A DNA stretch of 64,000 nucleotides from Mytilus edulis. Taxonomy: Eukaryota. Both the position numbers and the translations under genes were made by a program. The first letter of the stretch is position 1; each line of letters begins with the position of its first letter. Below the pieces are notes generated by a model. It was not told the origin of the DNA and did not search any database. It saw nothing but the letters and a program-made list of their open reading frames with translations. The stretch lies in the NCBI RefSeq assembly GCF_963676685.1, contig NC_092349.1, forward strand, positions 44,826,001 to 44,890,000, in the 5' to 3' direction. Of the stretch, positions 822-46,679 are shown one piece after another.

Positions 822-957
822 AAGGGACGGATCCAGCCATATTTAAAAGGGGTTCCAACCCAGGATAAAGGGGAATGTCCCCATTCACAAAGCATTGATC
901 TTTAAAAAAAAAAAAGGGGTGGTTCCGACCCCCGGGCCCCCTTTTGGATCCACCATT
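822..957. mobile_element. Degenerate CAG-type MITE, imperfect TSD AGCAG/AACAG
   Basis: GGACGGATCCAGCC...TTGGATCCACCATTA. Reverse relative of 27079-27230. Confidence 0.65.
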
Positions 958-1582
958 AAACAGATTTCATTTGGTACGTGATCAACAACCGCGGATTGAA
1001 CAGTCCAGCGTTTTCTTAATATTAAACAAACTTCATTTGAACTTTGGTGGATAGGTGTCTTATTGGCAATCATACCACACCTCCTTATTTTTATATAAGG
1101 GTTTTAAACAAACACTATAAATAAATTTTGAAGCAATATTTTTTACATTAGAAATCATTCAGCTTCGTTCACGAGGAGAAAATTTACATAATGCAGGTAA
1201 ATATACATATTTCTAATAATTTTTGTGACAATATATCGTCTCTGACTTCTTATTTTAGTATTTTTAGAATAATATTTTAATTAAAAATAAAATAAGGTGC
1301 ATCATCTCAAGATAAAATTTGCCACGTAAATGTTCAATTTCAATTTTAGCGACAAACAATTTCAAATATGGAATATTCATGAGAACTGGGTTTTTAATTA
1401 GGCATTTATAATTTTGGAAGTTTATATAAACAAAACAATTATTGAAATACCTTGAATTAAATTTAAAAAAAAATATTTTAAAGATTCTTATTTATTTAGA
1501 TTTTAAATACAAACTGGAACAAAATACTAATTTTTGTAGTATCCTTCATTTGAAAAATATCACTGCCAGATGTAAAATTTAA

Positions 1583-1966
1583 GGATGTTCGCTTCCCGTG
1601 TTTTTGACTCTTTGTCAGATATTGGAAATCCTCTAGTGTTATCAATGTGCTGCCTAGAAACATTTTGTGAGGTAACCCCTACTTTTCTTTTAATATTCTT
1701 AAAACTATTGGTTAAAAGGCTACTTTTGAAAATCTGACAAAAATCCTTGTTATTTTTTCATAGTTTTTGAAAGAAAAAAGGTGCCAATGATAAATGTAGG
1801 AAAAATCTAGAGAGAATCATTTCCCGCCAAATTTTTAATGGCTTACATCTAAAAAAAAAACCATGGACACTTGCCTTGCATTTTGTTCTTGGCTTTTTGA
1901 GTTTTGTTATTGATGTACTATAAAAAAAAATAATGTTTTTATTTTGAAACAGAGCAGCGAAAATCC
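1583..1966. mobile_element. Kolobok-like MITE (degenerate)
   Basis: GGATGTTCGCT / AGCGAAAATCC with TTAA/TTTA flanks. Confidence 0.6.
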
Positions 1967-3742
1967 TTTAAATAAAGCCAATGTTGTATAAAGTACGTAT
2001 TTCATGCAAGGTACTTACACGTGCAATCAGCAACAGAGAAAACAGCGATAGGACAAGCATTGCGTTCGTCTTTCCTGCAATACCAGTAGTAACGAAGGCT
2101 GCCACATGTTTATTTTTATAAGGGATTGAATATAATTACAATTTTATTTATTGCAATTATTTTTATTATCAATTTGCTAAAGTTACATCATAAATACAAA
2201 AAAATATCGTTTGCTACATAGACAAAAATACTTAATATGCTTTATTGCTTCAATTTTTGTATTAACTTACATAGTTGACTTTAAAATCATACATTACAGG
2301 ATAGTTTTACATAATTTGCCAGAAAAGTGGTGTTGCTATCTGTTGGAAGAGAACCACCTTTTCAGATTAGTTATTATTTCCACTAATTAACAATTTTATC
2401 TTGTTAATGAATCATGCTTATTATCAAGGACAACAAATGGAAGTGTTTAACGACCTTGACTGGCTATACAGCCCTTGCACGGTCGGTTATCAAGGACGTA
2501 TATAACTAACATCTAATATACGTCCTTGTTATTATGTAAAAAAATCGTGACAAGTATTGATGTGTTTAAAATATATATGATATAGTAGTGTTTGTTACTA
2601 TATATATATACTATATATAAAAATATTAATTTTCGCGAACCATTTAGGTCACGGAAATTCCAAAATATGGCATCAGTAAGGAGAGTTGTGCAAATAATGT
2701 GAATACACAGAACCCCCATCCAAATTATCTTTAGCTAAAAGTATTCATGATCATTTTCTATTTTATATGTACTAACAACATTCCATTTTTCTATAATTTC
2801 GATTAAAATATTCCAAAATCTGAGTTAAAAAAAGTCAAATGCCCAAAATAAACATTGTCTGATTGGTTGAAGTACTGTGGCGTCAATGATAAGCATAGCA
2901 AGCCTCGATGTAAAGCACACGCTTCACATGAATAAGGAGAGTTTTACAAATAATGTGAATACACAGATCCTCCATCCTATTTATATTTTGCTGAAAATGT
3001 TGCAATGTTCATCATTTCTGTTTTGATTCTGCTAACAACATTCCATTTTTTCTTTAATTCCGATTTATATATGTGGAACCCGCAATAAAAATAGATGGCC
3101 TCAATGATTTAAACGCAACGCAAAAAATTCCGTTGACCCTGAATTCAACGGATCGATAATAGCATCATCACCATCAACAAAATGTTTACCGTTATCTTTG
3201 TGAAATTTCAGTCATATAGTTCTTTAATTAGAGAAATTTTGGTAAGTATTACTTATTAATGTTAAGGTTCTACTGATGTGCTCCTCTAGACCTTTTTGAC
3301 GGTCCGTTTTATCCCATTTATCTCAATATTATCTCCGATGACAGTAATGTCAACCCGACCTATTCGTGTCAAAAGTGAAAATCGCATCGATTTATTGAAC
3401 TAATTTCTTCTTAAACTGTGCATGCATTATTTCTGTATTATATGATAACCGTTCAATCACATTCACGTTGAATGTTTGCATGAAAATGGTCATGTATTAG
3501 TGAATTGTAAGGGCGATGCAACTTGAGGTCAGTGCGCGATCACGTGACATTATTATTTGTAAACAAATTTAAAACATGCTCCCCGCGTAACACGTGTCTG
3601 AATTATCCTTTCAAAGTGTTATGAATCTTTCAATCACTATTTTATGAAATATTTCTAGGTTTGCATATCAGTAGTCAAAGTGAATTAAACGTAGTTCTTA
3701 GTTGTGTTTTTTTTTATATAGAATTAGAAGGTAAATCTACAT

Positions 3743-4983: not shown

Positions 4984-5121
4984 CATAGACAGACCAAGGG
5001 GGTGGGGGAAATTTAGCTTATGACATATATGTAAGAAATCATTGAAGCTTGATGGGAGTGGGCAACCCTCTGGTCCATCAGAGCCCCCACACCTTTTTGA
5101 AAAGTTCTGGATCTGCCACTG
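4984..5121. mobile_element. Degenerate CAG-type MITE, imperfect TSD AGATG/AGATT
   Basis: Ends CTGGATCTGCCACTG; the left terminus is decayed. Confidence 0.55.
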
Positions 5122-6508: not shown

Positions 6509-6809
6509 GGGAGCTACCATTTGATTTTTATGGGGGGAGCTAGGATGAAATTTGAAAAAAAAAGGCAGGACAGGATTTTGAGTAAAAAAAAAAGGCAGGA
6601 TGAGTAACTTGGCAAAAAAAAAAAAGGCAGGATGACAATTGTTGTAAAAAAGTCAGGATAAGCTAAGAAAAAAAGAGGCAGGACCGAATAGACTGAAAAA
6701 TAAAAAGGCAGGACAGAGATTACAACTAAAAAAAAAGGCAGGACAAAATTTTTCATCCTAGCCCCCCCCCCCCCCCCCCCCCCCCCATAAAAATCAAATG
6801 GTAGCTCCC
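6509..6809. mobile_element. PIF/Harbinger-like MITE, TSD TAA
   Basis: About 30-bp TIR GGGAGCTACCATTTGATTTTTATGGGGGG, TAA on both sides, internal AAAAAGGCAGGA repeats. Confidence 0.85.
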
Positions 6810-6852
6810 TAATCGATTTCTAAAACTATACTTCATTGCACATGTTCAACAT

Positions 6853-7796
6853 TTTTATTCAACCACAAAAAATTTGGGGTCGTAAATTGGTATCCTGTCC
6901 GAAAGATGGTTTCTGGATAATAACTTTATTATAAGTCAACACAAATCAACAAAATTATAACACAACGTTTATAACCACAAAAGGAAGCTTGGGATTGATT
7001 TTGGGGGTTATGGTCCCTAAGGTTTAGGAATAAGGGGTACAAAGGTGCCCAAAACAAGCTTTAATCTAGTGTCGGTTTAAAAAGTTGTGTATAAGTATTT
7101 CAATTGTTCTGAAATTGTACCACAATGTTTAATACCATAAGTAGAAGGTTCGGATATATTGTGTGGGTTATGGGACAAACAGTCTAATAATTACGGACCA
7201 AAAACAAACATTTTTGTAAATTCAAGACCCTTAATTGGAGTTTGTCCAGAATGGTTCTTGAATTACCTAATACCAATGCTTTATGAAATCTTCTTTGAAA
7301 ATTGGAGTTATCTTTCTTTGTTCAGTCAACTTAAATCAATTATACAATATACAATGCAATATTCACTTTATTACCAACTGATAAATTAAAGCAGTCATTA
7401 ATAACCATTCAGTGATTGCAAGCACTTTCTAGGGTATGCCCTTTTACAAATGGAAAAATTATACATTTTTTTAGTTTCTGATCTCTTAACTGAAGTTTGT
7501 CTCCTCTAAATGTTTCTCATTTCAGAAATTAAAAAGAAAATTTCTTTAGATATTTTTGTTTGAAAGGATTAATATTCAGCAGCATAGTGAATTGCTCCTA
7601 ACACAAAAGCAAAACAAATATTTAAGTTCATTAGACCACATTCATTCTGTGTCAGAAACCTAAGCTGTGTCATCTATTTAATCACAATTCAAACTCAGAG
7701 CTGTTTCCAGCTTGAATGTTGTGTCAATACTAGCCCCAACTGTTCAGGCTTCGACCTCTGCAGTCGTATAAAGCTGGGCTCTGCGGAGCATCTGGT
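6853..7796 (-). mobile_element. Older, internally deleted reverse-oriented copy of the 31367 HINE-like family
   Basis: 7500-7796 is the reverse complement of 31367-31660. 6950-7200 matches the 160-bp repeat. Confidence 0.65.
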
Positions 7797-8074
7797 CCAT
7801 TCATTTGTTTATTTTTCAATTTGTGTGAATTAACATAGTTACAGTAAATGCTAATTACTGCACTTTCATACCACAACAAATATTGTATTGGTACATGTAT
7901 CACTCAAATGTGTATCCATATAACAAAAAAAATGAAAAGGAATAATTTTGCATTACCTTTTGAATACTATGACTTTTTAGATATGTAGACATATTAAGAC
8001 TCATTAGTAGATGTTGATAATATTGGCTTAAAATGCTTGAAATTCTATCAGATTACTTTTGGAGCAGTTATGAG

Positions 8075-11337: not shown

Positions 11338-11483
11338 CAGTGGCGGATCCAGAACTTTTCCTAAGGGGGCCCGCTGACTGACCTAAAAGGGGGGGGGGGT
11401 TCCAGTCATGCTTCAATGATTCCCTATATAATCAACCAAATTTTTCCCACGAAGGGGGGTCCCCCCCCCTGGATCCGCCTATG
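11338..11483. mobile_element. CAG-type MITE, 5-bp TSD ATAAC
   Basis: CAGTGGCGGATCCAG...CTGGATCCGCCTATG with ATAAC on both sides. Confidence 0.85.
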
Positions 11484-12009: not shown

Positions 12010-12233
12010 GAGGGCCCTCATGGGGTTTTTGATTATGTGATTACTTGGCCGTTTTTTTAATGATTATTTGATTATTAAGCCAAATATTTCATGATTATTT
12101 GATTACCTAGGACTGTATTTTTAGTTTATGATTATTTGATTACTAAAGATAAGCAAATATTTAATGATTATGTGATTTTATTGGCAAAAAAATGGTGATT
12201 ATGTGATTACTAGGACCCCCCATGAGGGGCCTC
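12010..12233. mobile_element. GAG...CTC MITE, 6-bp TSD ATTACA, internal TGATTA array
   Basis: GAGGGCCCTCATGGGG / CCCCATGAGGGGCCTC with ATTACA on both sides. Confidence 0.8.
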
Positions 12234-12545: not shown

Positions 12546-12707
12546 CAGAGGCGGATTTAGAGGGGGGCCCAGGGGGCCCGCCCCCCCCCCCTTTTTTGGA
12601 AAAAATTTGGTTGCTTATATAGGGAATCACTGAAGCGTGACTGGAGCGGGCCCCCTCTTAGGTCAGTCAGAGGGACCCCACTTATTAAATTTCTGGATCC
12701 GCCACTG
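12546..12707. mobile_element. CAG-type MITE, 5-bp TSD AATAG
   Basis: CAGAGGCGGATTTAG...CTGGATCCGCCACTG with AATAG on both sides. Reverse-oriented relative of 11338-11483. Confidence 0.85.
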
Positions 12708-13097: not shown

Positions 13098-14509
13098 CAG
13101 GCGCGTAGCAACCCGTACGCAAAAACGCAGTTGCGTACACATCGAAAATCTCCAAAAAAATAAAAATATGGTAAATCTAGTAAGAATTTAACTAAAGTAA
13201 TGAAGTTAATAAAAAAAAATATACAAATATGTTAATGATCAGTTTGTAGCTATATTCCGTTCCGAAAACTAGTCTTCCCTTTTCATTTACGAAATCAGCA
13301 TCGTGATTCTGTTGCTGATACAAACAATTTAAAATGGCTGAGTCCTTCGGGTGTCAAAACACAATTGTCACGTCTTCTATGCCTCCTTATCCTGACATTT
13401 TTTTCTGAAGATTCCAAAATAACTGATGAAATAAAATATGACATTTTTAAGAGACAATGGACATCAATTCATTCTTATGAAACTGAACATGTATCTACCT
13501 TTCGTCGATCATTTGATAGCAGAGTTGAATACAAGACTTCTGACAGCAGAGCCACGTTATGTCGCACAAAAGTTAATTCCACAATCATTGACCAACTTAC
13601 TTTAGCTGTTGGGGACATAATCTTTAATGGAATGCAGATGATGCCCATGTTACAAAAGACGAATTTCAAGATCGAAATTCGGAGATGGTTAAAAAATGGA
13701 CTGGATATTTTGATAACATTCCTAACAAGCTGCAGGAAACATTAAATGTTATAAACCAAGGATACCCGGGAATCTTTCAGATACTTAATGTATTTGCCTG
13801 TATGCCGGTCTCGACGGCAACGCGGGCAGAACGGTTCTTTACTACCATGAGAAGAGTGAAGACCTAGTTGAGAAATACAATGAAAACGAATCGTTTATCT
13901 GGACTCGGTCTTTTGAACATATACTAAGAAAAAAAATTAAAACAGACACGGTTTTGGACATCTTTAGTAGAAAAAAAGAAAGGAAATGGGCATCGATTTT
14001 TCAGAATTAACTTTGAGAGAAAAAAAAAAGCTGAAAAACACTGCTTGTTCACTCCTAAAATAAAACATAAAGATATGTGTCTGATTCGAATTTTTATTTA
14101 TGTATTTTCTCAATAAGAAAAATACCATTTAAGTTGCACAGTGTTGGCTTAGAAATTAGTTTGTGTTTTCTAATGTAAAGTGGGTTCAGCATGATTAGGT
14201 AACAAATAAAATATACCTAATCAAGCCATTTTAACCCACTACACATAAGAAAAGAAAAAACAAATTGTTAAGCCCAACAGTACGGGTTTCTTTGTTTTTC
14301 TCTGATTATTTATTTCCAAAGTTGACTTTTTTCTCCTGAAAGTAAGATTTCTGTGAGGTCATTTTAAGTCCTCGGAAATTGCGAGAATGCAGGATTTTGC
14401 ACCATTTACCCCAGAGCTTCAGGGAGCCTTGATCGGCCCAAGACCCCCGGCCGTATGACTACCTTCTCCGGCATTGCGTACACATCAAAATTGCCTAGCT
14501 ACGCCCCTG
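13098..14509 (+). mobile_element. Internally deleted hAT transposon (P52rIPK/THAP12-like transposase remnant), 5-bp TSD CATGT
   Basis: Termini CAGGCGCGTAGC / GCTACGCCCCTG, with CATGT on both flanks. Repeated TTGCGTACACATC near both ends. Remnant peptide YPGIFQILNVFACMPVSTATRAERFFTTMRRVKT*LRNTM (hAT dimerisation domain). Lies in intron 2 of UNC93 paralogue 1. Confidence 0.85.
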
Positions 14510-14839: not shown

Positions 14840-15168
14840 GGATCCCGCTAACATGTTTAACCCCGCCACATTATTTATGTATGTGCCTGACACAAGTCAG
14901 GAGCCTGTAATTCAGTGGTTGTCGTTTGTTTATGTGTTACATATTTGTTTTTCGTTCATTTTTTTTACATAAATAAGGCCGTTAGTTTTTTCGTTTGAAT
15001 TGTTTTACATTGTCTTATCGGGGCCTTTTATATAGCTGACAATGCGGTATGGGCTTTGCTCATTGTTGAAGGCCTTTCGGTGACCTATAGTTGTTAATGT
15101 CTGTGTCATTTTGGTCTTTTGTGGATAGTTGTCTCATTGGCAATCATACCACATCTTCTTTTTTATAT
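14840..15168 (+). repeat. Abundant SINE-like interspersed repeat (family 1)
   Basis: AACATGTTTAACCCCGCC...CAAGTCAGGAGCC...GTTGTCTCATTGGCAATCATACCACATCTTC. Further copies or fragments at about 1040, 9890-10310, 15615-15712, 15720-16332, 21893-21982, 22520-22665, 37590 and 57850(-). Confidence 0.7.
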
Positions 15169-15204
15169 AAACAATGTATATAGCTATCTCTTTCGTAAAC
15201 ATAC

Positions 15205-15475
15205 CATCGCTCTGAGCTTGCCACACCGCATCTGCTAGTCCCCACACAGCTGGTATAACAAAAAAAAGTTCAAATGGAACCTGGCCACTTAAAGACCATA
15301 CACGTAAAAAAACCAGGACACCTAAATTAAGGAAAGCGCTGAAAAAGAACAATACTAGTCTTCCGGTATATTTAGCTATTATTCCAACTAGTAGAGATCC
15401 AACTGTATCACAAACGCCAAAGCATATCATCGTGTAGCCAATCCATTCAATCCCAAGTTTACAGGCAACGAATGA
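15205..15475 (-). CDS. UNC93A: UNC93-like paralogue 1, exon 2 (271 nt)
   Basis: tttag acceptor, then SFVACKLGIEWIGYTMICFGVCDTVGS...WGLADAVWQAQSD, then GTATGT donor, phase 1. Confidence 0.92.
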
Positions 15476-16456
15476 CTAAAAAAATCAGGTCTAAATTATA
15501 TGCATAATTATCTATAAAGCACAGTATAAGTAGATATAGTAGATATTGAAGTAAAATGGATATGTCTGCAATCGACCTGTTTGCATTCATTTACAAATGA
15601 ACAGTTGTTGAAGTTTAAGGCCGTACATCGACCAATAGTTGTTAATTTCTGTGTCATATGATCTCTTGTGGAGAGTTGTCTCATTGGCAATCATACCACA
15701 TCTTATTTTTTATAGATGCACTTAAGCGATTAATTGATTGATATTTTAGTCTTAGATATATGATATTTTATTAGTTCATTGGCTTTGAACTAGCTGTCAG
15801 TAGCTGTGAGTACTCTCGGTACTGTACTTCGTTCTTTTTTGTTATGAGGGATCATGTATAAATTCTCTGACAACGTCCGGTCTGTGTTTTTGTTAGATGT
15901 GTTTTTCTGCATTGTATCGATCTGACGAGTTAAGCCCTTTTCAACATATTGTTTAGGTTTTTTTTAATGTTGTACTGTTAAACCACTGTACCAGTTTAGG
16001 GGAAGGGTTTGCGCCTTCAAACACGTCAACCCCGACACATTCTATATAAATGTGCCTGCCCCAAGCCAGGAGCTTGTAGTTGAGTGATTGTCGTTGGTTC
16101 GTGTCTGTCATATTTGTGTTTCGTAAATGTTTTTGTTATAAATTAGGCCATCAGTTTTTCTCAATTCAATTGTTTCATATTTTCCATGACAGGGCCTTTT
16201 ATAGCCGACTATAATTAAGGTATGGATTTTTCTCATTGGTGAAGGTAGTTCACATACAATTGCATACATCAACTTCTTTTGAATTTTGGTGGATAGTTGT
16301 CTCGTGGGCATTCATACCACATCTCCTTATTTAAAAAAAATATATTTCCGCAACTTTGGAAATTTCTGTCTATTTTTTTAAATCAAAATACATGTTACCA
16401 AGGATTTGTATCCTTGGTGTGTGTTACCAATTCTTTATTACTCAGTATATACTTAC

Positions 16457-17341
16457 TGTTGTAAACTGAGCAAACATCATAACCTGCTCCATGCCGGTAT
16501 AAAGGGCGAACGGAATTATCATGGCCATATTTAGATCGGTAAAAAGTAGTTTCAAATTGGCAGCTAATCGTTCCTTTAAAGTAGAATACTTGTCACTCAT
16601 GGATGATTTGATTGGTTTAAGAACAAACACCGTGAGGAGTAAACCAATGAATGTGATCCCTAAATATATACTTATTAGAGTAATTTCTAAATGTTGGTCC
16701 GGTCTAACGACAGCTTCAGAAGTCTCATTTCCGTTACTGATCGTTTGCTCAGAGGGGCAATACTGAGCACCACAAAAAGTGTTGTTAGTCTGTTCCGTCG
16801 ATGCACCGCCTAGCTGGAACACTGCTGACGAAATAAGATTGCCCCAAACTTGTGTGCTTTGAAAAGCCATGAAAAATATTCCGAACAATCTACTGAGTAT
16901 TGCTTCTAACGATTCTCCGGTTATTTTGTGATAGTCTAAGGCAATCATTGTCACATAACATGATTGCGCCGTCCACAATAGTCCTGAAGATAAACCAACA
17001 ATGGCGCCGCCTGTTATTAAAATATACGGTTTTGGATAGTAGTTAGCGGCTACAAAAATACACTGACAAATACATGCAACAATAAGAGCTCCTTTAGATC
17101 CAATATAACTTATAACTGTCGGAGCTACGAGACAGGAAATAACTCCGCCGGAAGTCACTGCTGCCAACGAATAAAGTCCAGTTACAGCATTTACTGCCGC
17201 CTCTAAGTTTTGCAATCCAGAATATGCCGTAAATATGAACAGCCATATAAAGCATATTGTCATAAAATTGAATAAGAGCTTCCTTTTTTGTTCCCTTACG
17301 TCTTCTTTGTGTGAATTTTGTTTTTCGGTGACAACTTCCAT
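16457..17341 (-). CDS. UNC93A: UNC93-like protein A paralogue 1, exon 1 of 3 (295 codons); full CDS join(17341..16457,15475..15205,12480..12266), 456 aa
   Basis: ORF carries UNC-93 motifs FIFTAYSGLQNLE, GLLWTAQSCYVT, FFMAFQSTQVWGNLISS, CGAQYCP and YTGMEQ. GTAAGT donor follows AQFTT, phase 0. Confidence 0.92.
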
Positions 17342-18404
17342 TATTAACTTTTATGGTTATAAGAGTCACAGTATCTAAAAGTACTTTTTACAAAATGCAC
17401 TTTTTTCGGACTGCACTTTCTGTTATCAATAGTTTTGTAAATCAATATTGAATTAAATTTTACATCTGTTGTACGTATTCATTTCATCGTAGATGTGTAA
17501 ACTAATGACCGGCCAGCTCCAGGACGCCTTCAAGATTACTGAAATCTTGTTATCTTTATAAAATTACCGGATAATTATGATATTGACATTATGTACTGGA
17601 CATGTCTTTTGCGTTGTTATTCAAGTCTTATAACTTCTTTTTACAAAATAAATAGCAACTTATAATTTATTTCTGTCATTGTTTTACTTTTTAAAAAGAA
17701 TAACCATATTTTGAAACGTACGCAATTCAAATACAAATTCAATTTCAAAATGAGAATGTCCATGTATCAATATTTTATAATGGTCAAACATGCTAATTAA
17801 GTAAATATCAATTCAAATGTTATCATGTTGTTCAAGGTAAAATACCAACGAATACTAGCAGAAAGGCCGACAAACCTTTTTGATCCTCCAAGGATTCCGT
17901 ATCAACAGAAAACCTCTACCTGTACGTACATTATATATACCAAGGTAAACAACAGTAACGATCGACCTACAAAATGTTTTTATTGCAAAAAAGGATGAGA
18001 AAATCGGCATTGACAATTTTAGAATGAGAATTCGGTATAAACTTATCTGCGATGGCATTCAAATTGTTTAATAATCAGACAATGTTTAACTTGGTGATAA
18101 CATTTGTAAAAGCTTCTTGTAGTTTTGATGTTATATTTAAAGTTTCATATGACTTAAAGTTAATTTCGAAAACAATTTTTTTTAAATGAATAAAATTACG
18201 AATAAAAACATTAATTTTATTTTCCAAAACATGTAGGAAATGATAATAATTAAAACTAAATAACTGATTTAAAGTACACCAAAAGTCTCCTTTTTGATCA
18301 TTTGCGGTTTTTTTTTAACCCCGGACCTCATTTTATTTATATAGATATTTAAATGAATATATAGATGAATCAACGCATTTTAAAGTGTTAATTGAAAATA
18401 AGAG

Positions 18405-18628
18405 TTAAATTAATCTTTCATCTGGTTTGTTCTTCAGGCGGATCCTAATTTCTACAATAGCCACAAATACCATGGATACAACTAACGTCCCTGCTGCTAT
18501 ATAAAGTTTGATGTATTCACATAGATGTACATTATATAGATAACCCACAGTGAACCCCAGAGCCTGGAACAGTCTTAGGTTGGCAAACGCTGGTTCCTGG
18601 TCTTCTGTAAAGGCAGAGCCTACCAAGG
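18405..18628 (-). CDS. UNC93A: UNC93-like paralogue 2, exon 3 (terminal)
   Basis: tttcag acceptor, ALVGSAFTEDQEPAFANLRLFQALGF...DERLI*. Exon lengths sum to 1440 nt. Confidence 0.9.
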
Positions 18629-19252
18629 CTGAAATAAACCAGATGATATCATAGTCAAATCGAAATCATATTACATGAACGCCTTTTGTATTTTATATTC
18701 TATATTTTTTACACTCTTTCCTTTGTCTCTGTTATGTATAATTGGCTTTAAAACCTTTTAGATGCATAGTTTCTGAATTACTTCTTCATCAATACACGTA
18801 CAATGTACGCATAGGGTCTTGCGTTTTAATGTAAACACTGCATGCTGGTGTCATTGATGGTGGACTAAAAGTCCTGCAATGTAATGAATTTTCCGCTATA
18901 TCGAAAAAAGGGAACAAACACATATCTGGGTATTTAAAATGATACGCTTTTACGTTCATTAATGTATATCTTATAGGGGCCGATCGATGCGTCCATTTAG
19001 CGTTTTCGACTTTGATTCCACAGAACGTTGAACTTCGCCTTTTCCTCTGATGATACAAAAATGTCATCAGAAGCGGATTTGTTCATTTTAAAAGGGGTTC
19101 CATCTATATGTTTTCATTCGAAAGAATTGATCGTCAAAACACGGAGACAAAATAATATTTGATCAACAGAGTTCTTTTTTTACTGCCGAAATTAACTTTG
19201 AAGTTTATATAGTACGATAGTGGTGTTTGCATGCATGTCATCAATAACTGTA

Positions 19253-25583: not shown

Positions 25584-26727
25584 AATTTGTTTGCTATTTT
25601 AGGTATGATGATACAAACTTGTAGTAATCCAACAGAAGACAAATCCAGGAATAAAACTAATGAAAACAAAATTTCAGAATAAGAAATGCATGTCAATCTG
25701 ACGGTAAGGGAATGCCAGAGATATCGTGGCAATAATGTTAAATAATCTACGGCAACACAACATCAAAAGAAACGGAACATCACAGAATACGGAAAATGAC
25801 AGAAAAATTGAAAACACATTGGCACAAATCAAGAAAAACGATAAAAAAAGAAGACGGCAATACTAAGTCAGAAAGATAGCATCACTATATAGGTCCTGAA
25901 ATCACTGTCAAATTCACGGTACTATCATAAACTCCGAAAATTGGATAGTATCGGTAAAATATACGGCAAACAATTTTAAGTTGAAATTTTCGGTGTCACC
26001 TTGTTTTAAAAATTCACATTATAGCTGAGCTTACTTCGGTTAATTTTCCCGGTATATCAGCAGACGTTACCATAAGTCTGTAAGTAAAAACGATGTCGTA
26101 AGGTCAGATGCTAAGATAAAATATGAATATCCAAATGTGTAGAGGTCAACTTTAGCATTGTCATCGTGTTTACTGAGGTCACATTTTTAGCTACTCGTAA
26201 TCCATATTAGAAGTGCATGACTTTCACACGTTGTGTATTAGATAAGTACCCAAATTCATAATTTTGATATCACTATAATATAACCCCTTATCAATAATGA
26301 TAATCAGCGAGTTATCTGACCGTTGTACACCATTATCTACCCTATATTTATGCAGTGTAAATACTTATTTAAATGTGATATGAAAAAATGTAAACATACC
26401 ATATATTGTATTCGAAAACAAATTATTCTCCGCCTGATTCTCTTGAATAAGAACCAATCAAAATTTAAAAAAAAGGGAATTTTGATATTTTAGAACTTTT
26501 ATCAAAAATCCCAAATAAAATGAAAAACTTTTTGAAATTTTGAATTGCTTAGTGTTACACGGACCCAAACAGTCATATCATGCAAAAGGATACATTTTAC
26601 AGTGCTTGATAAAGTTTTAAAAGCGTTATGAAAGTTATAAAAGTTCAAAAAATGTATATTAATTACTCTTCTCGTATTTTAACTTGATTCAGTAAGTCGG
26701 GAACACAAAACATAAGTAATAAAAAAT

Positions 26728-26885
26728 CTGGGGCAGATCCAGGATTTTTGACAATGAGCGTAATGCTCGATAATTGAATATTTTTTTTTGGACGATTCGA
26801 CACTCATATTGTGTAAACATATCGTGGAACACATGAATTTTTAACTAACAGCCTCTACGCCCGACCCCTGGGTTTGCCGCCACTG
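26728..26885. mobile_element. Degenerate CAG-type MITE, imperfect TSD AAAAT/AACAT
   Basis: CTGGGGCAGATCCAGG...GCCGCCACTG. Confidence 0.55.
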
Positions 26886-27078: not shown

Positions 27079-27230
27079 CATTGGCGGATCTCAAGGGGGG
27101 GGGGGGGTCCGGGGGTTGGAACCTCCCTTTTTTGGCCGATCAATGCATTTGAATGGGAGTATATAGTTGGAGCCCCTTTACTCTGGGTTGGGAACCCGCC
27201 ACTTTTTTCAAATGGCTGGATCCGCCTCTA
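27079..27230. mobile_element. CAG-type MITE, 5-bp TSD ATATC
   Basis: CATTGGCGGATC...GGATCCGCCTCTA with ATATC on both sides. Confidence 0.8.
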
Positions 27231-27464: not shown

Positions 27465-27729
27465 TAATAAAGATAGCTATAAACAAAACAAGAATATGTG
27501 GTATGATTGCGTACCACTATAAATACTAAGGCATACAGCTTCAGGTCACCACAGGTCAACAATGAGCTTAACCCACACTGTAAAGTACAGGCGCGGATCC
27601 AGCCATTTTGAAAAAGGGGTTAAAAACCCCAGAGTCATCATGAAGAATACAAATATGAAGAAGAGTATAAAACGGTCTGACTTATGCTTGTACCATTATT
27701 ACAGTGTGGGAACGGAACTGAGCAGGTTT

Positions 27730-28492: not shown

Positions 28493-28805
28493 GGGAGCTA
28501 CCATTTGATTTTTATGGGGGGGGGGGGGGGGGGGGGGGGCTAGGATAAAATTTGAAAAAAATAGGCAGGACAGGAATTTTGAGTAAAAAAAAAAGGCAGG
28601 ATGAGACACTTACAAAAAAAAAAGTCAGGATGACAATTTAGGTAAATAAAAGTCAGGATAAACTAAAAAAAAAAAGGCAGGACCGAATAGAGTGAAAAAT
28701 AAAAATGCAGGACAGAGATTACAACTAAAAAAAATGCAGGACAAAATTTTTCATCCTAGGACCCCCCCCCCCCCCCCCCCCCATAAAAATCAAATGGTAG
28801 CTCCC
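28493..28805. mobile_element. PIF/Harbinger-like MITE, TSD TAA (second copy)
   Basis: Same TIRs and internal repeats as 6509-6809. Confidence 0.85.
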
Positions 28806-31360: not shown

Positions 31361-31366
31361 TTTAAA

Positions 31367-33262
31367 AACCAGATGCTCCGCAGGGCGCAGCTATATACGA
31401 CCGCAGAGGTTGAACCCTGAACAGTTGGGGCAAGTATGGACACAACATTTAAGCTGGATTCAGCTCTAAATTTGGATTGTGATTAAATAGTTGACACAGC
31501 ATAGGTTTCTGACACAGAATGAATGTGGTCTAATGAACTTAAAATATTTTTTTTGCCTTTGAGCAATTCACTATGCTGTTGAATATTAATCCTCTCAAAA
31601 AAATGTTTGAAGAAATTTTCTTTTTATTTATGAAATCTGAAATGAGAAAAATTTAACCCCCCCCCATTTTTTTTTCACATCCCCCTTTCCCTTTTTCCAA
31701 AACTGATCTCAATTCAAATTCCTAATGGAGTTTGCAACAATAACTACTCATTTAAATACATCATAAAGTATTAAAATGTAAAATAAAGTGCTTGTTATCA
31801 CTGAATGGTAAAGATTGTTTTAATTTATCATTTGGTAGTAAAAGTGAATATACATTGTATATTGTATAAAACAATGATTTAAGTTGATTCAACTACTATT
31901 CTGGACAAAGAAAGATAACTCCAATCAATTGAAAATTTCTTGCTATTGCACAATATTGTGCAATTAGATATTTCTTGCTATTGTGCAATACTGTGCAATT
32001 GAAAATATTTGCTATTGCACAATACTATGCAATTGAAGATTTCTTGCTATTGTGCAATACTGTGCAATTGAAAATTGCTAGCTATTGCACAATACTGTGC
32101 AATTGAAGATTTCTTGCTTTTGCTGAATACTGTGCAATTGAAAATTTCTTGCTATTGCACAATACTTAATATAATAATTTTGGATCCTGATTTGAACCAA
32201 CTTGAAAACTGGGCCCATAATCAAAAATCTAAGTATATGTTTAGATTCAGCATATCAAAAAAGCCCAAGAATTTAATTTTTGTTAAAATCAAACTTAGTT
32301 TAATTTTGGACCCTTTGGACTTTAATGTAGACCAATTTGAAAACGGGACCAAGAATTAAGAATCTACATACACAGTTAGATTTGGCATATCAAAGAACCC
32401 CAATTATTCAATTTTTGATGAAATCAAACAAAGTTTAATTTTGGACCCTGATTTGGACCAACTTGAAAACTGGGCCAATAATCAAAAATCTAAGTACATT
32501 TTTAGATTCAGCATATCAAAGAAGCCCAAGGATTCAATTTTTTTAAAATCAAACTAAGTTTAATTTTGGACATTTGGCCCTTAATGTAGACCAATTTGAA
32601 AACGGGACCAAAAATTAAGAATCTACATACACAGTTAGATTCGGCATATCAAAGAACCCCAATTATTCAATTTTTGATGAAATCAAACAAATTTCAATTT
32701 TGGACCCTTTGGGCCCCTTATTCCTAAACTGTTAGGACCAAACCTCTAAAAATGAAACCCAACCTTCCTTTTATGGTCATAAACCTTGTGTTTAAATTTC
32801 ATTGATTTCTATTTACTTATACTAAAGTTATTGTACGAAAACCAAGAATAATGCTTATTTGGGCCCTTTTTTGGCCCCTAATTCCTAAACTGTTGGAACC
32901 AAAACTCCCAAAATCAATCCCAACCTTCATTTTGTGGTCATAAACCTTGTGTCAAAATTTCATAGATTTCAATTTACTTAAACTAAAGTTATAGTGCGAA
33001 AACCAAGAAAATGCTTATTTGGGCCCTTTTTGGCCCCTAATTCCTAAAATGTTGGGACCAAAACTCCCAAAATCAATCCCAACCTTCCTTTTGTGGTAAT
33101 AAACCTTGTGTTAAAATTCCATAGATTTCTATTCACTTTTACAAAAGTTAGAGTGCGAAAACTAAAAGTATTCGGACGACGACAACGACGAAGACGACGA
33201 CGACGACGACGCCAACGTGATAGCAATATACGACGAAAAATTAAAATTTTTGCGGTCATATA
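31367..33262 (+). mobile_element. Helentron-associated (HINE/DINE-like) composite element with internal tandem arrays
   Basis: Subterminal inverted motif TATACGACCGCA / TGCGGTCATATA; arrays of about 32, 130/260 and 160 bp; (GAC)n microsatellite; 3' hairpin; A-rich flanks without a TSD. Confidence 0.7.
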
Positions 33263-34508
33263 AAAAAAAGTATATAAAAAGACTTATATTAGTTATCATC
33301 ATTAGCTTTGCAAATTGATTTCAGTTTATTTGAGAAATGAATGATTTACAACATTGGCTTCCAGGTATTTCAGAAAATCCAGAAATAACTAGATTAGATC
33401 AATGAAGCAAGCACCTGCCAGAGAAAAATTTAATTAACTTACCAATCATTTCCATTGTGTAATATTAACCCCCTATGCACTATATTGAGGTACTAAAATC
33501 ACATCCATGTTTTTTTCCTCCTCATCAAACCCCCATCATGACAGAGATAACACATTCATCGCAAAGTTATAAATAGCTGCACATTAATTCCCACTGCATA
33601 CCATTTCATCTCTTACTACATATGATTTATCTATATAGATATCAAACCAACTTATGCTTCTTTTATTTTTATTTTTTGTAGATAATTAATTATACCACCT
33701 ACTATAAAACAGTTGTTAAAGGACAGGTGAACTTTGATTTCTGAAGAAAACTGTTTATTTTGTTCATTTTGAAATTTAATGCTTTCTATGAGTATATTAA
33801 CTTGTTACTGCAACCTTCTGATAGGATTTAATATCATGAAATCAACTGCTGATCGATTTACAACATCTCCATAAAATGTACATCACGATTAGAAAAAAAA
33901 AATGTAAATTATGTTGGTTAAATATTCAGTTAAGCATTTCTTATCAATTTCATTAAAGCATTAAGGGTGGGTCATACAAATTAAGACAGTGTTTTTACTA
34001 TGCATTACTATGATTGAAGTATCTGTTAAACATGATAATATTTAAGCTTGATAAATAAGTATGCTAAATCCAATTGTTTATTGTTAACAACCATTTATAG
34101 ACCTCTAAATGTTGTGAATGCTTTATGATGTAATGTAGAAGTGTCATTTATGCGTAACCAATATCTTCTTCTATTTTATTACTAAAGAATACAAAAATAT
34201 GGTCATCTCTAGACCTGTTCAATAGTTAAACCCTAATTCTCTGTCATACACAGTTAGATTAGTCAGATTGGGGACTCTAAATCAGATGTCTCATGTACTC
34301 TCAGCATGTAAAAGAACACTTGCAACAACTCCCTGAGAGGTCAATGGGTAAAATGTGTATAATAGGACAGACGCCGGACAGACAGAAGGAGACACAGACC
34401 AGAAAAAATATCGATCATCTACATAGGGAGGGCATAAAAATATAAAAGACCATAAAAATTTGTTTAATAGCCCTTATGTAAAACAAGCTTGTCATAGTTG
34501 CAAGATAC

Positions 34509-37500
34509 AACCAGGTGCTCCGCAGGGCGCAGCTTTATACGACCGCAGAGGTCGAACCCTGAACAGTTGGGGCAAGTATGGACAAAACATTCTAGCGTGA
34601 TACAGCTCTGAATTTGGATTGTGATCAAATTTTTGACATTACATGGTTTTTTTTTTACACAAAACAAATGTCAAGATTTTACAAATTTTACAATTAAAGA
34701 TTTCTTCTTCAAACTTTTTAAATCTAAAATTAAATAGTTGACACAGCATAGGTTTCTGACACAGAATGAATGTGGTCTAATGAACTTAAAAGTTTGTTTT
34801 TGCCTTTTAGCAATTCACTATGCTGTTGAATATTAATCCTCTCAAAAAAATGTTTGAAGACATTTTCTTTTTATTTATGAAATCTGAAATGAGAAAAATT
34901 TAACCCCCCCCCCCCCTTTTTTCACATCCCCGTTTCCCTTTTTCCAAAACTGATATCAATTCAAATTTCTAATGGAGTTTGCAACAATAACTACTCTTTT
35001 AAATACATCATAAAATATTAAAATGTAAAATAAAATGCTTGTTATCACTGAATGGTAAAGATTGGTTGGAAGTAAAAGTGAATATACATTGTTTATTGTA
35101 TAAAACAATAAAAAAAACTTCATCAGCAACATTTTATATTGGCAAATTTCCAATGAAGTTATTTACATAAAGTTATTGGCAAATAAAAATAGAAAATGAC
35201 ATCATAGTCATGTCTGGCAAATGTCCAACATACATTATCTAAAAACATTTTAGATAAGATAAGGAAATAAGATGTAAAAAAAATGCTTGTTATCACTGAA
35301 TGGTAAAGATTATTTTAATTTATCAGTTGGTAGTAAAAAGTGAATATACATTGTATATTGTATATAACAAAGATTTAAGTTGATTCTGGACAAAGAAAGA
35401 TAACTCAAATTAAAAAAAAATCTTGCTATTGCACAATATTTTGCAATTAGATATTTCTTGCTTACTATTCTGGACAAAGAAAGATAACTCTAATTAAAAA
35501 AAATTTGCTATTTCACAATATTGTGCAATTAGATATTTCTTGCCATTGCGCAATACTGTGCAATTGAAAAGACTTGCTATTGCACAATACTTAATATAAT
35601 AATTTTAGATCCTGATTTGGACCAACTTGAAAACTGGGCCCATAATAAAAAATCTAAGTACATTTTTGGATTCAGCATATCAAAGAACCCCAAGATTTTA
35701 ATTTTTGTTAAAATCAGACTAAGTTTAATTTTGGACCCTTTGGACTTTAGTGTAGACCAATTTGAAAACAGGACCAAAAATGAAGAATCTACATACACAG
35801 TTAGATTTGATATATCAAAGAACCCCATTTATTCAATTTTTGATGAAATCAAACAAAGTTTAATTTTGGACCCCGATTTGGACCAACTTGAAAACTAGGC
35901 CAATAATCAAGAATCTAAGTACATTTTTAGATTCAGCATATCAAAGAACCTAACTGATTCATTTTTTGTCAAAATCAAACTAAGTTTAATTTTGGACCCT
36001 TTGGACCTTAATGTAGACCAATTTGAAAACGGGACCAAAAGTTAAGAATCTACATACACAGTCATGACAGTTAGATTCGGCATATCAAAGAACCCCAATT
36101 ATTCAATTTTGATGAAATCAAACAAAGTTTAATTTTGGACCCTTTGGGCCCCTTATTCTGTTGGGACCAAAACTCCCAAAATCAATACCAACCTTCCTTT
36201 TATGGTCATAAACCTTGTGTTTAAATTTCATAGATTTCTATTTACTTATACTAACGTTATGGTGCGAAAACCAAGAAAAATTTGTAAGGGTTCCGCGGAA
36301 CCCAGTGTCTCGCCTATTTTTGCTGTAAATCGCAGACTCAACAACAATGAGGAAAAAAATCAATAAAATATTCCTCTTGTTACTATTTTATGATTGTAAG
36401 AAAATCTAAGTCCATTTAAAAGTAAATTACAGAAAAAACGGAGTAATCTTTTTACAAACTTTACTTCTGGATACAATCTTATGATCATAAATAAGCTTCT
36501 GTCCAAGTTTGGTACAAATCCAGGATAGTTTAAGAAAGTTATTAAAATTTTAAAAACTTTAAACACAGAGTGAATGTAATGGTTCCCCGCAGAAAATCTA
36601 AGTCCATTTAAAAGTAAAATATGGAAAAAATGGATTTATTTATTTACAAAATTTACTTCTGGATACTATCTTATGATCATAAACAAGCTTCTGTCCAACT
36701 TTGGTACAAACCCAGGAGAGTTTAAGAAAGTTATTAAAATTCTAAAAACTTTAACCACAGAGTGAATGTAATGTTTCCCCGCAGAAAAAACTAAGTCCAT
36801 TTATAGTAAAATACGGAAAAAATGGAATTTTATTTTTACAAAATTTACTTCTGGATACTATCTTATGATCATAAACAAGCTTCTGTCAAAGTTTGGTAGA
36901 AATCCAGTATAGTTTAAGAAAGTTATTAAAATTTCAAAAACTTTAACCACAGAGTGAATATTTGTTGACGCCGCCGACGACGCCGATGACGACGGAATGT
37001 AGGATCGCTTAGTCTCGCTTTTTCGACTAAAGTCGAAGGCTCGACAAAAATGCTCATTTGGGTCCCTTTTTGGCCCCTAATTCCTAAACTGTTGGGACCT
37101 AAACTCCCAAAATCAATACCAACCTTCCTTTTGTAGTCATTAACATTGTGTTTAAATTTCATTGATTTCTATTTACTTAAACTAAAGTTATTGTGCGAAA
37201 ACCAAGAATAATGCTTATTTGGGCCCTTTTTTGGCCCCTAATTCCTAAACTGTTGAAACCAAAACTCCCAAAATCGATCCCAACCGTTCTTTTGTGGTCA
37301 TAAACCTTGTGTCAAAATTTCATAGATTTCTATTCACTTAAACTAAAGTTATAGTGCGAAAACCAAGAAAATGCTTATTTGGGCCCTTTTTGGCCCCTAA
37401 TTCCTAAAATGTTGGGACCAAAACTCCCAAAATCTTTACCAACCTTCCTTTTGTGGTCATAAACCTTGTGTTAAAATTTCATAGATTTCCATTCACTTTT

Positions 37501-37583
37501 ACTAAAGTTAGAGTGCGAAAACTAAAAGTATTCGGACGACGACAACGACGAAGACGACGACGACGACGCCAACGTGATAGCAA
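34509..37583 (+). mobile_element. Second copy of the same HINE-like element, 3'-truncated, with a nested element
   Basis: Collinear with 31367-33262 from CCAGGTGCTCCGCAGGGCGCAGC to GACGCCAACGTGATAGCAA. Confidence 0.7.
36281..37047 (+). mobile_element. Nested HINE-like element with about 192-bp core repeats
   Basis: Interrupts the host motif AACCAAGAAAA|TGCTTATTTGGG. GTCTCGCCT/AGGCTCGAC subterminal inverted motif, (GAC/GCC)n tract, 3' hairpin TTCGACT AA AGTCGAA. Confidence 0.7.
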
Positions 37584-38157
37584 ATTGTGACTTGGATGGG
37601 GAGTTGTCTCATTGGCACTCATACCACATCTTCTTATATCCATATATAGGGTTTATACTTTCAATAAACCAGAGAATGCTAGTTATACCAGTTTGTTCTT
37701 TGTGGAGAGCCATACATGGAACTATATAAATGAAGGATGAACACTACAGCAATTGTATAATGGAGAATCGTAACACTAAAGACAGGTCTTGTTTGAACAA
37801 AATGACCACAGTTTGAACATTTATTATTTTCTTTTTGTACCATAATGTTGAAAAATGAGACAAAGTTCAGAAAAGCATTGTTTGATGGCAAAGCACTGTT
37901 GATAAATATCTGAAAATTATTCCCCACAGAAAATGTGAGTTAAAAAAGAACTTTCTATTAATTTAATACAAAATATTTAGCAAAATAAAACAAAGCAAGG
38001 GATCGTCAATTCATTAAAAAAAAATATCAGATGAGACATTTTAGAACACACTTAATCTTAGGACTAGTTTTAACATAATCTGTGTCATCAATTATGTGTT
38101 TAAAGTATTTTCCTGAAAAACCAGTAGACAGCTATAAAATAGCCTGCTACTTCATTG

Positions 38158-38321
38158 CATACCCGTAGCCAAAGGTGGGGGGGGGGGGTTCATCCGAACC
38201 CCCCCTTAAAATCAAATAAGCACCGTTAAAGGCAACGTTTTGTTCAAATTGTGACTGTTAAAGTCAAGTTCATGAGTCAAACGAACCCCCACCCCCTTGG
38301 AAATTCCTGGCTACGGGCCTG
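38158..38321. mobile_element. CAG-type MITE (CCCGTAGCC subfamily), 5-bp TSD CATTG
   Basis: CATACCCGTAGCCA...TGGCTACGGGCCTG with CATTG on both sides. Confidence 0.8.
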
Positions 38322-42204: not shown

Positions 42205-42342
42205 TAGTGGCTGATCCAGAACATTTTGTAAGGGGAGCCACTGACTAATCTGGGGGTGGGGTGGGGGGTCCAGTCATGCTTCAAAGATTCCCTACATAAT
42301 CAATTTTTTTTCAAAAAAGGGGCCCCCCAGGATCCGCCTATG
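42205..42342. mobile_element. CAG-type MITE in LRRC47 intron 4, imperfect 5-bp TSD TAAAG/TTAAG
   Basis: TAGTGGCTGATCCAG...GGATCCGCCTATG. Internal sequence matches 11338-11483. Confidence 0.75.
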
Positions 42343-42345
42343 TTA

Positions 42346-42597
<252 letters not shown>

Positions 42598-42789: not shown

Positions 42790-43163
42790 ATATAATAATC
42801 CTTATTTGTCATATAAGTAACATTATACGTGTGACATAAACAAAAGTAACAACAACAATAAAATAACTGAGTTAAACACACACATATCTATATATATATA
42901 TACAAGTAAAACTAACTAAGAGTCCCCTGTCCTCAGCTCTAAAGACTGTTTTATAAAGGAACCTGTTTTTTTTTTCACTTGGTTTATATTAGAAGGATTT
43001 AGTAGGACTACTAGTTTTTCAGTATCAGATAGATTTGGAAACATAGGATTATCTATTGCCATGTCATTAAAAAGTTTTATTCGTAAAACATTATTAATTT
43101 GACAGTGGAGGAGAAAGTGATTTTCATCTTCTAAGGTTTTACAAGTTGGACATGTTCTATTGT
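42790..43163 (-). mobile_element. 3' end of the same LINE: CCHC zinc-knuckle C-terminus, stop codon, 3' UTR and (ATT)n-like tail
   Basis: Hand translation RTCPTCKTLEDENHFLLHC...GSFIKQSLELRTGDS* (TAG at 42916-42918), in frame with the upstream part once the hAT and one TSD are removed. Confidence 0.88.
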
Positions 43164-46100
43164 CAGGGGTGTGGAAATATTTGTTGGGAGCGCTTGTCCC
43201 AGGGCAAGTAAAACTGTAAATTCTACTTGTCCGGAAAAAAAGTTACTTGCCCTGAAAGTTCTTATAAAAATTGAAGTATTTTCCTGTTTAAAGCTTGCAC
43301 GTTTCTTAGCACTGTTTTGCATCAAAAAATAAATTTGAGGGCAGTGAGTGAAGAAGAGAAAACTAAATTATAGATTAACTACTGAATTTTAATCTATCAT
43401 GTTAATTGTTATTATCATACAATTGATAAAAAAAATATTTTTGATAAAACAACCTGTTTTATTGAATAAAATAAAATGTCAAAGAAGTTTCTAGTTTGTT
43501 TTTCAAAGAGTTCAAGCATTTTTACATCAAGCTGCATTGATCTGATCCAGATGGTTCACTACTAGCCATTTCTTTAAGTTTGGCTCGTGCAGCTTCTTCC
43601 CCACCAAGTGACTTAACTAAGTCCTGCAAAAGAGGTCTGACATTTGTTACATCTCTATCTTGAGAATGACTTGCAACAGCTTCAGAAGTTGCTTTAACTG
43701 GCAGTTTGTGAGTTAAATGTCTGTTGCCTGATTTTAACCAATATACAACTGATGGTCTAGGATCAAATTCCTTTATACTGACACCATTTACAACAATTTG
43801 CATTTGATTTTGTAGATTTTCCTGTGTTAATTTGCTTCTCAGAGGACTTTTTATTATGTTCATTTGTGAAAAAACTCTTTCACATGCTGCTGATGAGGAA
43901 GATATGGTCAGCATTATTTCAATGAGAACATTAATATTTCTAAAGGAGTCATCTTGCTGCCTTTTTAAAAGGTCACAATATACAATTAGTGGGTAGTTAT
44001 CTTTCTGAAACGAAACTTGAACTTTTAATGTCTGCCATTCTTCATGTGCATTTTTAGATTCCTCATCAGAAATAACACCACTGAAAAGTTAATTGACAAA
44101 GTGATTTAATGTCTGAGTTACCAAATAAACTGAGTTCTGTCAATCTGTGTGGCCATGCCCAAAAATCAAAAACTTTGAAATGGGATAGTGGGGGGATATC
44201 AAAATCAGAAAACCTTTTCAAAACATAATTTCCAATTTTTTCCAAAAGTGTGGAAACATCTTTGTCATCTTTGAAAGGAATCAGGTTCCCTTTAAGTGCA
44301 AGTCTACCGTCAAACATTTTAGTTTCAACATCATATTTCTCATAGAATACAGAGAGATTTTCACTAGGTTCCTGTCTCATAGCATGGATCTTGGAAAATA
44401 GAGTATCCATAGCTGCCTTTACTTCAAAAATCATTAAATCCTTGACCTGAAACAACTTTGAAGTTGCAGATATTGCACCCAAAACATCAAGCATGTCATT
44501 GAGATGGATATATTTTACAAATTTGACCTGTGTTAGGTCACCAAGAATAGCCTTGGCCTGCCCAATTTCATCACAACGTTTGGATTTATTTAAAATTTCT
44601 TCCATGTGTGAGGCTGTAATATGTAAATCTTGACAAACAGCTGTAAGAGCCCTGCTTTTTGAGCTTACCCATCTGACAGCTTTTATTTCTGTATGCATCA
44701 ACAAGTCTTCATCAAATTTTGGCTAAGTTTTTAAGCTCACTCTTCGTTTTGGACTAAAGGAATAAAACTTACAGATACGTTTCAATTCAACTTCAATTTT
44801 TTTCAAATATACAACATCCTTAACAGCATCCAAAATTCCAAGTTCCAGTTTATGGGCAACACAGTGCATAACAATTACTTTGTTGTTAACCTGGTCATTT
44901 ATCTGTTTGGCAACACCATTTTTAGCCCCCATATTGACAGCTGCACCATCCATGTTAACACAGACAATTTTTGGTTGACCTTCAACCTCATTATTACCTA
45001 AATTTATGCCACACTTTGACACACCTGACTTTATTGCAGCATATACACCATCTGCAGTTGCACTTTCTAGATTTTCAATCCTAGCAAGTATAGTTACTGG
45101 TTCGTGTGTCTCAGGGTGGACATATCTGATAAGAACACTTTCTTGTTCCGTCACTGCATGACGAGTCGGTGCTACCGTCTGACATAATAGATATGAACCT
45201 TACCAACTTCATATGTTCTTTTGTTTTGTCAGAAAGAACTCCAGATATGGCTGTCAAGAAATTAACACAGGCATCCCGTCCAAGGTGGTCATTGCCTAGT
45301 TGCATACCATTTTTTATTTGAATGTCACACATAAAACTATAGTCAGAAAATGGTCGATTGTTTTTGACAACTGCATATGCTGTGTTGAAAAGTTTTTCAT
45401 ACATATCAACCTCAGACTGATTGACTTTAGCCAAAGCCCTGTCCATTTCTCCAGAAACCTGTTTTGTTTTATTTGTTTCTCTTAACTGACAAGCTTGGTG
45501 CTTTGCTGAAAAATGATGGGCAGTTAATGTGTCCCTTCTATCTACTACTTTCCCAACAAATAAAGTTGACTTTTGATCGGCAAGTGTTGGATGTTTTCTA
45601 CATATTATACAAAAATTTAATTTATTTTCCGTATTTTCTTCCGTAGAGAGCCAGGGGAACTCTGCTAACCAAGATGGTTGAAAATTCTCGCTTACGTTTT
45701 TTTTTTTCATACTCTTTGTCCTTCTCCGCCTGCGTTTTACGTTTTTTATTCGACTCTGCGACTTTGTCTGCATAATTTGCCCAGTAGTTTAATTAAGTAT
45801 TTGTCCATCGTATTACTGGCCACAGACCACAATTAAATTCTCTATTAGTTCTTTATAACGTTTTGTTTCATTAAAAAAATTGCACCTAATCTTTTTGTCA
45901 AATTTTTTGTGTGTGTAAAGTACAGTTTTAGTCCAAAACTATATCCAAAATTCAGAAAGATTGCTCCTCTGTATTTTACAAATTCAGCTAATACACATCT
46001 ATACCCCTATGGACAAGTCAAAAGATGTTCCGAAAACTGTAAATATCACCTTTTTGCACCTGGCCTAATCACTCTTTCCATATCAAAATCAGTTAAAATA

Positions 46101-46674
46101 AAACATCCAACAGTTTATTTTACCTCTCTTCTTTCATTTCCACCCCAGAAAAGCTAAGAAATGTATGAGAAAGGGAAAGAAAAAAAATTAAGAAAAAATA
46201 CACTATAATTAAAGGGAACTTAAAGACAACGAAAAGTGGGATCATTAATTGTGGGCCTACTAGGATATGGACTAAAGGTAAATGACACTTCCGTTTTAGA
46301 ATGGATAAAACCTAGTCGACGATCCCGGGTCAATGGACAAAGACAACGCAGTATTTACGAGACCTGGGTTCGCATACTTATTTTATTTTAATTTGTTTAT
46401 CGATCTTTTACCGGTGTTTTTTTTTAATATTTATCGTCATGAACATTGATGTTTAAACTTAAATATATGTGTTTTAATTTTTACCATTGGTTTCCTTTAC
46501 ATAAAATTAAACTGCTTTATAAGTTTGAAAAATAATTATATATTTTTGTATGAATTCAACTTTGTCTAATATTATTTTTTACTTGTCCACGGGCAACCCA
46601 GACAAAAAAGTCACTTGTCCGGATGATCAAATGTACGAGTCGGGCGAGTCGGGCATAGCATTTCCACACCCCTG
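43164..46674 (-). mobile_element. hAT DNA transposon (ZNF862-like transposase, frameshifted), 15-bp TIRs, 5-bp TSD ATTGT
   Basis: TIRs CAGGGGTGTGGAAAT / ATTTCCACACCCCTG. ATTGT at 43159-43163 and 46675-46679. Subterminal CTTGTCC/GGGCAAG repeats at both ends. Confidence 0.92.
43522..45773 (-). pseudogene. Frameshifted hAT transposase (TTF-type zinc finger, DDE core, C-terminal dimerisation domain)
   Basis: Consecutive ORFs carry FQPSWLAEFPWL..FCIICRKH, ISIMSDGSTD, MDGAAVNMG, HCVAHKLEL (CxxH), VRWVS and SSSAACERVFSQMNIIKS. At least 3 frame breaks. Confidence 0.9.
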
Positions 46675-46679
46675 ATTGT

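Follow-up and report, generated by a model that had tools for sequence, protein, structure and literature searches.

Eight miniature transposons and two transposase relics with 5-bp target-site duplications are likely served by hAT5-kind enzymes encoded elsewhere in the genome

The 64,000-nucleotide stretch analysed here, G000:C6:44826001-44890000 in a 1.37-Gb animal genome (32% GC) and hereafter called the window, contains ten mobile elements, each named below by its start position. Eight are MITEs (miniature inverted-repeat transposable elements), and hAT transposase genes sit inside the other two, 13098 and 43164. We conclude with good confidence, from sequence comparisons, that all ten are end-repeat DNA transposons with 5-bp target-site duplications (TSDs), likely moved by transposases of the hAT5 kind whose genes lie in other parts of the genome. 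Since the ends of 43164 fit none of the MITEs, and since the partners of the two MITE types, named GGCGGAT and CGTAGC after their ends, differ, the window appears to hold three systems with a common TSD length.

All ten starts proposed in an earlier note on this DNA turned out to be element ends, and the flanks it had described were found at each of them: exact 5-bp repeats at six (11338, 12546, 27079, 38158, 13098 and 43164) and 5-mers with one mismatch at four (822, 4984, 26728 and 42205; Table 1). Some details had to be amended. The termini, given as CAG...CTG-like, begin with CAG or CAT and end in CTG, ATG or TTG; the span to 46679 takes in the duplication, the big element itself ending at 46674; and of the two MITE types and at least eight MITEs claimed, eight MITEs are present, seven of the GGCGGAT type and only 38158 of the CGTAGC type. 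We scored TSD lengths of 2-10 bp for five of the ten elements and judged the flanks of the other five by eye. None of the five scored has an exact 8-bp duplication, in line with what the note had said of TSD length. In 11338, 12546, 13098, 38158 and 43164, 12-15 of 15 end bases pair as short terminal inverted repeats (TIRs). When unrelated flanks were paired at random (20,000 pairings), an exact 5-mer was the longest match in 0.15%. Independent support for the 5-bp TSD of the 43164 element comes from the long interspersed nuclear element (LINE) in which it lies: the LINE frame is regained if the element is removed together with 2, 5 or 8 bases, and an exact repeat exists only for 5.

The genome-wide count drew on 30 loci fetched for each of four window families, with pattern loci taken as the first by contig order and no random draw, and only two-ended copies were scored (n=101). 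An exact 5-bp TSD was seen in 18/21 copies of the 13098 family, 22/26 of the 11338 family, 18/24 of the 43164 family and 20/30 of the 38158 family. Pooled, this gives 78/101, with 6 or 7 bp in four copies and, in these 101, not one exact 8-bp TSD of the kind published for Ac, Buster and Tip. As the earlier note had expected, five base pairs is the genome-wide mode of the window families; the distribution has a tail at 6-7 bp. A scan of 1.65 Mb of DNA not selected by MITE pattern, the window included, gave exact 5-bp TSDs for 18/32 GGCGGAT elements, exact 6 bp for 3/32 and 8 bp for 0/32. Among transposase copies of the clade strong in the Pfam domain DUF4371, both ends were found for 27: 21 carry an exact 5-bp TSD, two a 5-bp TSD with one mismatch, four none, and none 8 bp. 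Within samples of 17-20 sites per family, which have low power, no strong target-site consensus was seen.

We give almost no credence to the idea that these repeats are 8-bp duplications that decayed or whose bounds were misplaced. About one fifth of the copies lack an exact 5-bp repeat, which speaks for it, but the method that finds 8 bp in 0/101 copies does detect it in the Ac-type hAT group of the same genome (exact in 7/9 copies with ends found) and in three copies of the L180 family. Moreover, the LINE empty site fits 5, and copies more than 99% identical bear differing exact 5-mers.

Partner transposases were sought with both transposase types and Pfam families as queries, which returned 100 stretches of 10 kb that were scanned for ends; the 30 terminal bases of each MITE were then ranked against 35 transposase-bearing families. 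For 7/7 GGCGGAT MITEs, the top three of the 35 were L200, L290 and L208, at 21-29 of 30 bases against medians of 14-18. All three have GGCGGAT ends and an exact 5-bp TSD. L200 is 5.7 kb long with a 942-codon frame, L208 is 5.0 kb with 1,023 codons, and L290 is 3.5 kb with a broken frame; they lie on other contigs or far from the window and form one hAT subclade (support 99/95). L290, like L189, L198 and L203, scores above the Pfam cut-off for Dimer_Tnp_hAT, and L200 and L208 are hAT by DUF4371 and motifs. Many other families with CGTAGC ends and a 5-bp TSD were also found. We assign the MITEs to hAT because autonomous hAT elements elsewhere match them both in their ends and in having a 5-bp TSD; matching MITE TIRs to transposase-bearing copies, the other check proposed, thus led to hAT-encoding elements. 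L200, L208 and L290 are best described as probable end-sharing partners of the GGCGGAT MITEs and at most as candidate parents.

Several points weigh against this assignment. The TSD counts retain four doubtful partner ends (L097, L102, L213 and L307) and a flank common to three 11338-family copies (L096, L109 and L112). For the 38158 MITE no single partner stands out: the best reaches 23/30, and five CGTAGC-clade families come within 2 bases. Extended internal homology was not found between the eight short MITEs and the autonomous elements, the longest match being 64 nt at 78%; since they share only ends, none of these MITEs can be called a proven deletion derivative, nor can one of the three families be singled out as the partner. 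All transposase-bearing elements found with these ends encode hAT, but they were retrieved by hAT queries.

The MITEs could, on this footing, belong to another superfamily that makes 5-bp duplications, for instance Transib, and have come to hAT-like ends by convergence. Transib tips are CAC...GTG, which we counted against this explanation. Its proponents could point to MITEs without internal homology to any hAT gene and to Transib duplications, which also measure 5 bp. Yet hAT-encoding elements of the same TSD length match the MITEs at up to 29/30 terminal bases and, in the case of 27079, at some 60 subterminal bases as well, and a mollusc survey found one Transib element across all genomes studied. 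We regard convergence as very improbable and retain the assignment to hAT.

The two resident transposase genes are relics. That of 43164 has a Pfam match to Dimer_Tnp_hAT (E 2.8e-6) and hAT catalytic motifs. The 13098 element, 1.4 kb long, keeps about 140 decayed C-terminal codons; it is a deletion derivative, because it shows extended identity (91-93% over 390 and 1,041 nt) with the end sequences of L153, which is 3.6 kb long. Both genes are dead, and neither can make an enzyme. This bears on the proposal of the earlier note that a whole system lies in one window, the two transposases mobilising all eight MITEs. Its appeal lies in the 5-bp duplications and CA...TG-like tips common to all, and in the 38158 MITE, which fits the ends of the 13098 family at 22/30 bases. 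However, the two transposases fall in deeply separated clades, the ends of 43164 are not among the six best of 35 families for any of the eight MITEs, and better-matching partners exist elsewhere. For the GGCGGAT MITEs, whose partners the relics are not, the proposal is largely refuted; as a whole we hold it to be most unlikely.

The arrangement that we favour comprises three systems. In the first, the L200/L208/L290 subclade likely supplies the transposase that moves the seven GGCGGAT MITEs in trans; the second takes in 13098 and probably 38158, CGTAGC elements that derive from the sister subclades; and the third is 43164, which belongs to a distant clade of the C17orf113/ZNF862 type and whose family has its own derivatives of 0.8-1.4 kb. 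Hermes joins its ends in a staggered manner over an 8-bp site, giving an 8-bp duplication, and its subterminal repeats matter besides the TIR (PMC10368747, PMC6941560). By analogy, the transposase may bind the short terminal repeat together with subterminal sequence and excise the element; both ends would be joined to target strands about 5 nt apart, as the footprints suggest, and repair would copy five bases. The stagger is not wholly constant, 6 or 7 bases being duplicated in a few percent of insertions. Judged by eye, the alignment around the catalytic motifs shows no indel that follows TSD length.

We rooted the transposase tree on the Ac-type transposases of the same genome. Fragments (W13098, L161, L163), near-identical copies and a LINE protein (L271) were left out, as were single-copy labels from some trees. 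The non-Ac hATs split in two (support 85/94 to 97/96). One half is the DUF4371-strong clade, in which all resolved TSDs are 5 bp; in the other, the 43164 group (5 bp) stands together with 6-bp and 8-bp families. The 13098 and 43164 transposases belong to different halves, and both lie outside the Ac-type outgroup. The best trees keep the 5-bp families apart, with those of 6 and 8 bp interleaved among them. Once the labels are corrected, the approximately unbiased (AU) test does not reject one origin of 5 bp (p 0.074 without outgroup; 0.068 for a set of multi-copy families alone plus an outgroup), and a repeated origin is only suggested. An apparently strong polyphyly of 5-bp hATs (AU p 0.003; 0.017) had depended on single-copy TSD labels that were later corrected, and was discarded.

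TSD length nonetheless varies within and between close families, and this result is robust. The long copy of L164 has 6 bp and two derivatives have 5 bp (5 bp in 2/3 copies); L173, with 5 bp, stands next to its 6-bp sister L174; and in the L171 family (about 225 copies; loci L327-L356), 13 pairs gave 6 bp in five, 5 bp in three, 7 bp in one and none of these in four. A reading that we find plausible, though just short of probable, is that the stagger of non-Ac hATs is a labile quantitative trait, which shifted repeatedly among 8, 6 and 5 bp while the end motif stayed unchanged, by way of mixed 5/6/7 families such as L171; in that case the names hAT5 and hAT6 would denote grades and not clades. 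Near-identical copies (at least 99% alike), apparently recent and with long open frames, are present in families of 5 bp (L189, L198, L208), 6 bp (L166, L170) and 8 bp (L180), and there is a mixed family besides. Were the stagger labile in this way, the 5-, 6- and 8-bp transposases of this one genome, young and apparently intact, would allow its determinant to be mapped. What sets TSD length in DDE enzymes has been studied in few structures, and these families bear on it.

Table 1 Elements and associated features in the window
Feature	Position	Strand	Remarks
GGCGGAT-type MITE, family B, decayed	822..958		flanks AGCAG/AACAG (one mismatch); 69% alike to 27079 over 129 nt
GGCGGAT-type MITE, family A relative, decayed	4984..5121		flanks AGATG/AGATT (one mismatch)
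GGCGGAT-type MITE, family A	11338..11483		exact TSD ATAAC; 22-nt end has 1,715 exact genome matches
GGCGGAT-type MITE	12546..12707		exact TSD AATAG; one arm common with family A (82% over 124 nt)
DUF4371-type hAT deletion derivative, non-autonomous, CGTAGC ends	13098..14509	+	exact TSD CATGT; longer relatives L152, L153
GGCGGAT-type MITE, family C, decayed	26728..26885		flanks AAAAT/AACAT (one mismatch)
GGCGGAT-type MITE, family B	27079..27230		exact TSD ATATC; first 62 nt 78% alike to L200 left end (E 1.4e-7)
Lone GGCGGAT-type end, truncated copy without partner end	27588..27625 (end approximate)	+	absent from the earlier list of elements
CGTAGC-type MITE	38158..38321		exact TSD CATTG; 17-nt end has 445 exact genome matches
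GGCGGAT-type MITE, family A, decayed	42205..42342		flanks TAAAG/TTAAG (one mismatch)
Full-length but defective hAT element inside LINE	43164..46674	-	15-bp perfect TIR; exact TSD ATTGT
Transposase gene, broken into four frames	43522..45788	-	C17orf113-type zinc finger, D-D-E residues, CxxH, RW, hAT dimerisation region
GGCC-ended high-copy MITE, unrelated, nested in 43164 element upstream of transposase gene	45818..46257		4-bp flanking repeat TACT
LINE reading frame (reverse transcriptase, C-terminal zinc knuckle) interrupted by 43164 element	42916..47871	-	used as empty-site control

Two of the partner families appear to carry additional domains. The first 200 codons of the L208 transposase frame (G000:C3:104378001-104388000, - strand) are predicted to form a herpes-tegument-type, deubiquitinase-like domain (Pfam E 4e-5, below the cut-off; Atlas 0.96), and an N-terminal domain of the same type is predicted in L206 and L281. 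In L200, positions 1737-3470 (G000:C6:36396001-36406000, + strand) likely encode an intron-split OTU domain ahead of the transposase (Pfam E 0.21; Atlas 0.90), with a GNGNC motif in exon 1 and NHF in exon 2. Neither domain showed up in the translated 5' part of L290. The two sister hAT families L200 and L208 thus likely carry two unrelated protease domains, probably deubiquitinases. Elsewhere, at G000:C13:3.2-3.75 Mb and on many small contigs, an identical fragment of the hAT dimerisation domain recurs at roughly regular spacing, which suggests a large tandem repeat unit bearing a hAT relic.

The window contains further repeats and genes. The 4-bp flanking repeat of the GGCC-ended MITE was seen by eye in 7/10 other copies as well. 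A MITE-like sequence at 12010-12233 has tips of GAG...CTC, GATTAT repeats inside it and, on its flanks, an exact 6-bp repeat, ATTACA. TTAA and TAAA flank another, at about 28493-28805, whose long inverted ends carry GGGAGCTACC; one more end lies near 6763-6810. Two UNC-93-like paralogues lie in tandem at 15134-25598 (- strand), and a leucine-rich-repeat gene is also present. The block at 31400-37600 is duplicated and contains nested tandem repeats of 35, 160 and 192 bp; relatives of it lie in inverted orientation at 6900-7800. A tandem array of a 584-bp unit, its copies up to 99% alike, occupies 59500-64000 and extends past the window edge.

By their features, the elements fall within the working definition of hAT5, a 5-bp TSD with a hAT transposase in the element or in an end-matched partner (weakest for the 38158 MITE); they may or may not descend from the Repbase hAT5 lineage. 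They share with hAT5 a hAT transposase, short TIRs, a 5-bp TSD and an invertebrate host. The hAT5 group reportedly goes back to Kapitonov and Jurka 2007 (Repbase Reports) and Putnam et al. 2007, as citing papers have it. The large, under-described hAT radiation suspected in the earlier note is indeed large in this genome, but of a kind already named in that year. The DUF4371 clade here may be Tip-like.

According to PMC12730594, families with 5- and 6-bp TSDs are hAT5 and hAT6, which share a lineage with Blackjack and further hATs of animals, and hAT7 is added; that placement fits the mixture of 5-, 6- and 8-bp families outside the Ac-type clade here. hAT5 is reported from invertebrates and fish (PMC9004415), and a 2026 preprint uses hAT5 and hAT6 as routine labels. 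What differs here is that 5 bp is found in two clades far from each other, and as a mode with a 6-7 bp tail. A curated bivalve library (PMC10294476) includes 133 hAT consensus sequences and may already contain these families. In a search outside which Repbase, Dfam and most subscription papers lay, we found no paper on these TIRs in molluscs or on hAT-OTU fusions.

Known systems with an 8-bp TSD offer partial likenesses. The Tip family (Tip100, BuT2), a third hAT group beside Ac and Buster, has MITE derivatives, and the tree of the same paper includes a hAT6 protein, but its reported TSD is 8 bp as against 5 bp here (PMC3942097). A probe for end small RNAs of the Arabidopsis non-autonomous hAT MPF contains a 14-nt motif of the family A tip, and the probe probably covers the TIR; the end motif is the same, whereas the TSD is 8 bp in the plant and 5 bp here (PMC2289841). 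With Hermes, to which there is a weak PDB match (E 0.055), the likeness extends to a DDE enzyme with CxxH and RW, recognition of TIR and subterminal sequence, and staggered joining (PMC10368747, PMC6941560), but Hermes has an 8-bp stagger with an nTnnnnAn preference, in contrast to 5 bp and no strong target consensus here, at 17-20 sites per family. Thousands of short repeats in this genome, which rules that require 8 bp would misfile, can be classed as hAT and linked to one subclade of transposases. Set beside these systems, the finding is mostly known: the elements add to the membership of hAT5, their MITEs are placed with a subclade of transposases, and no new kind of system emerges. What is added is that TSD length is a spread and not a constant, with 5-, 6- and 8-bp families interleaved on the tree.

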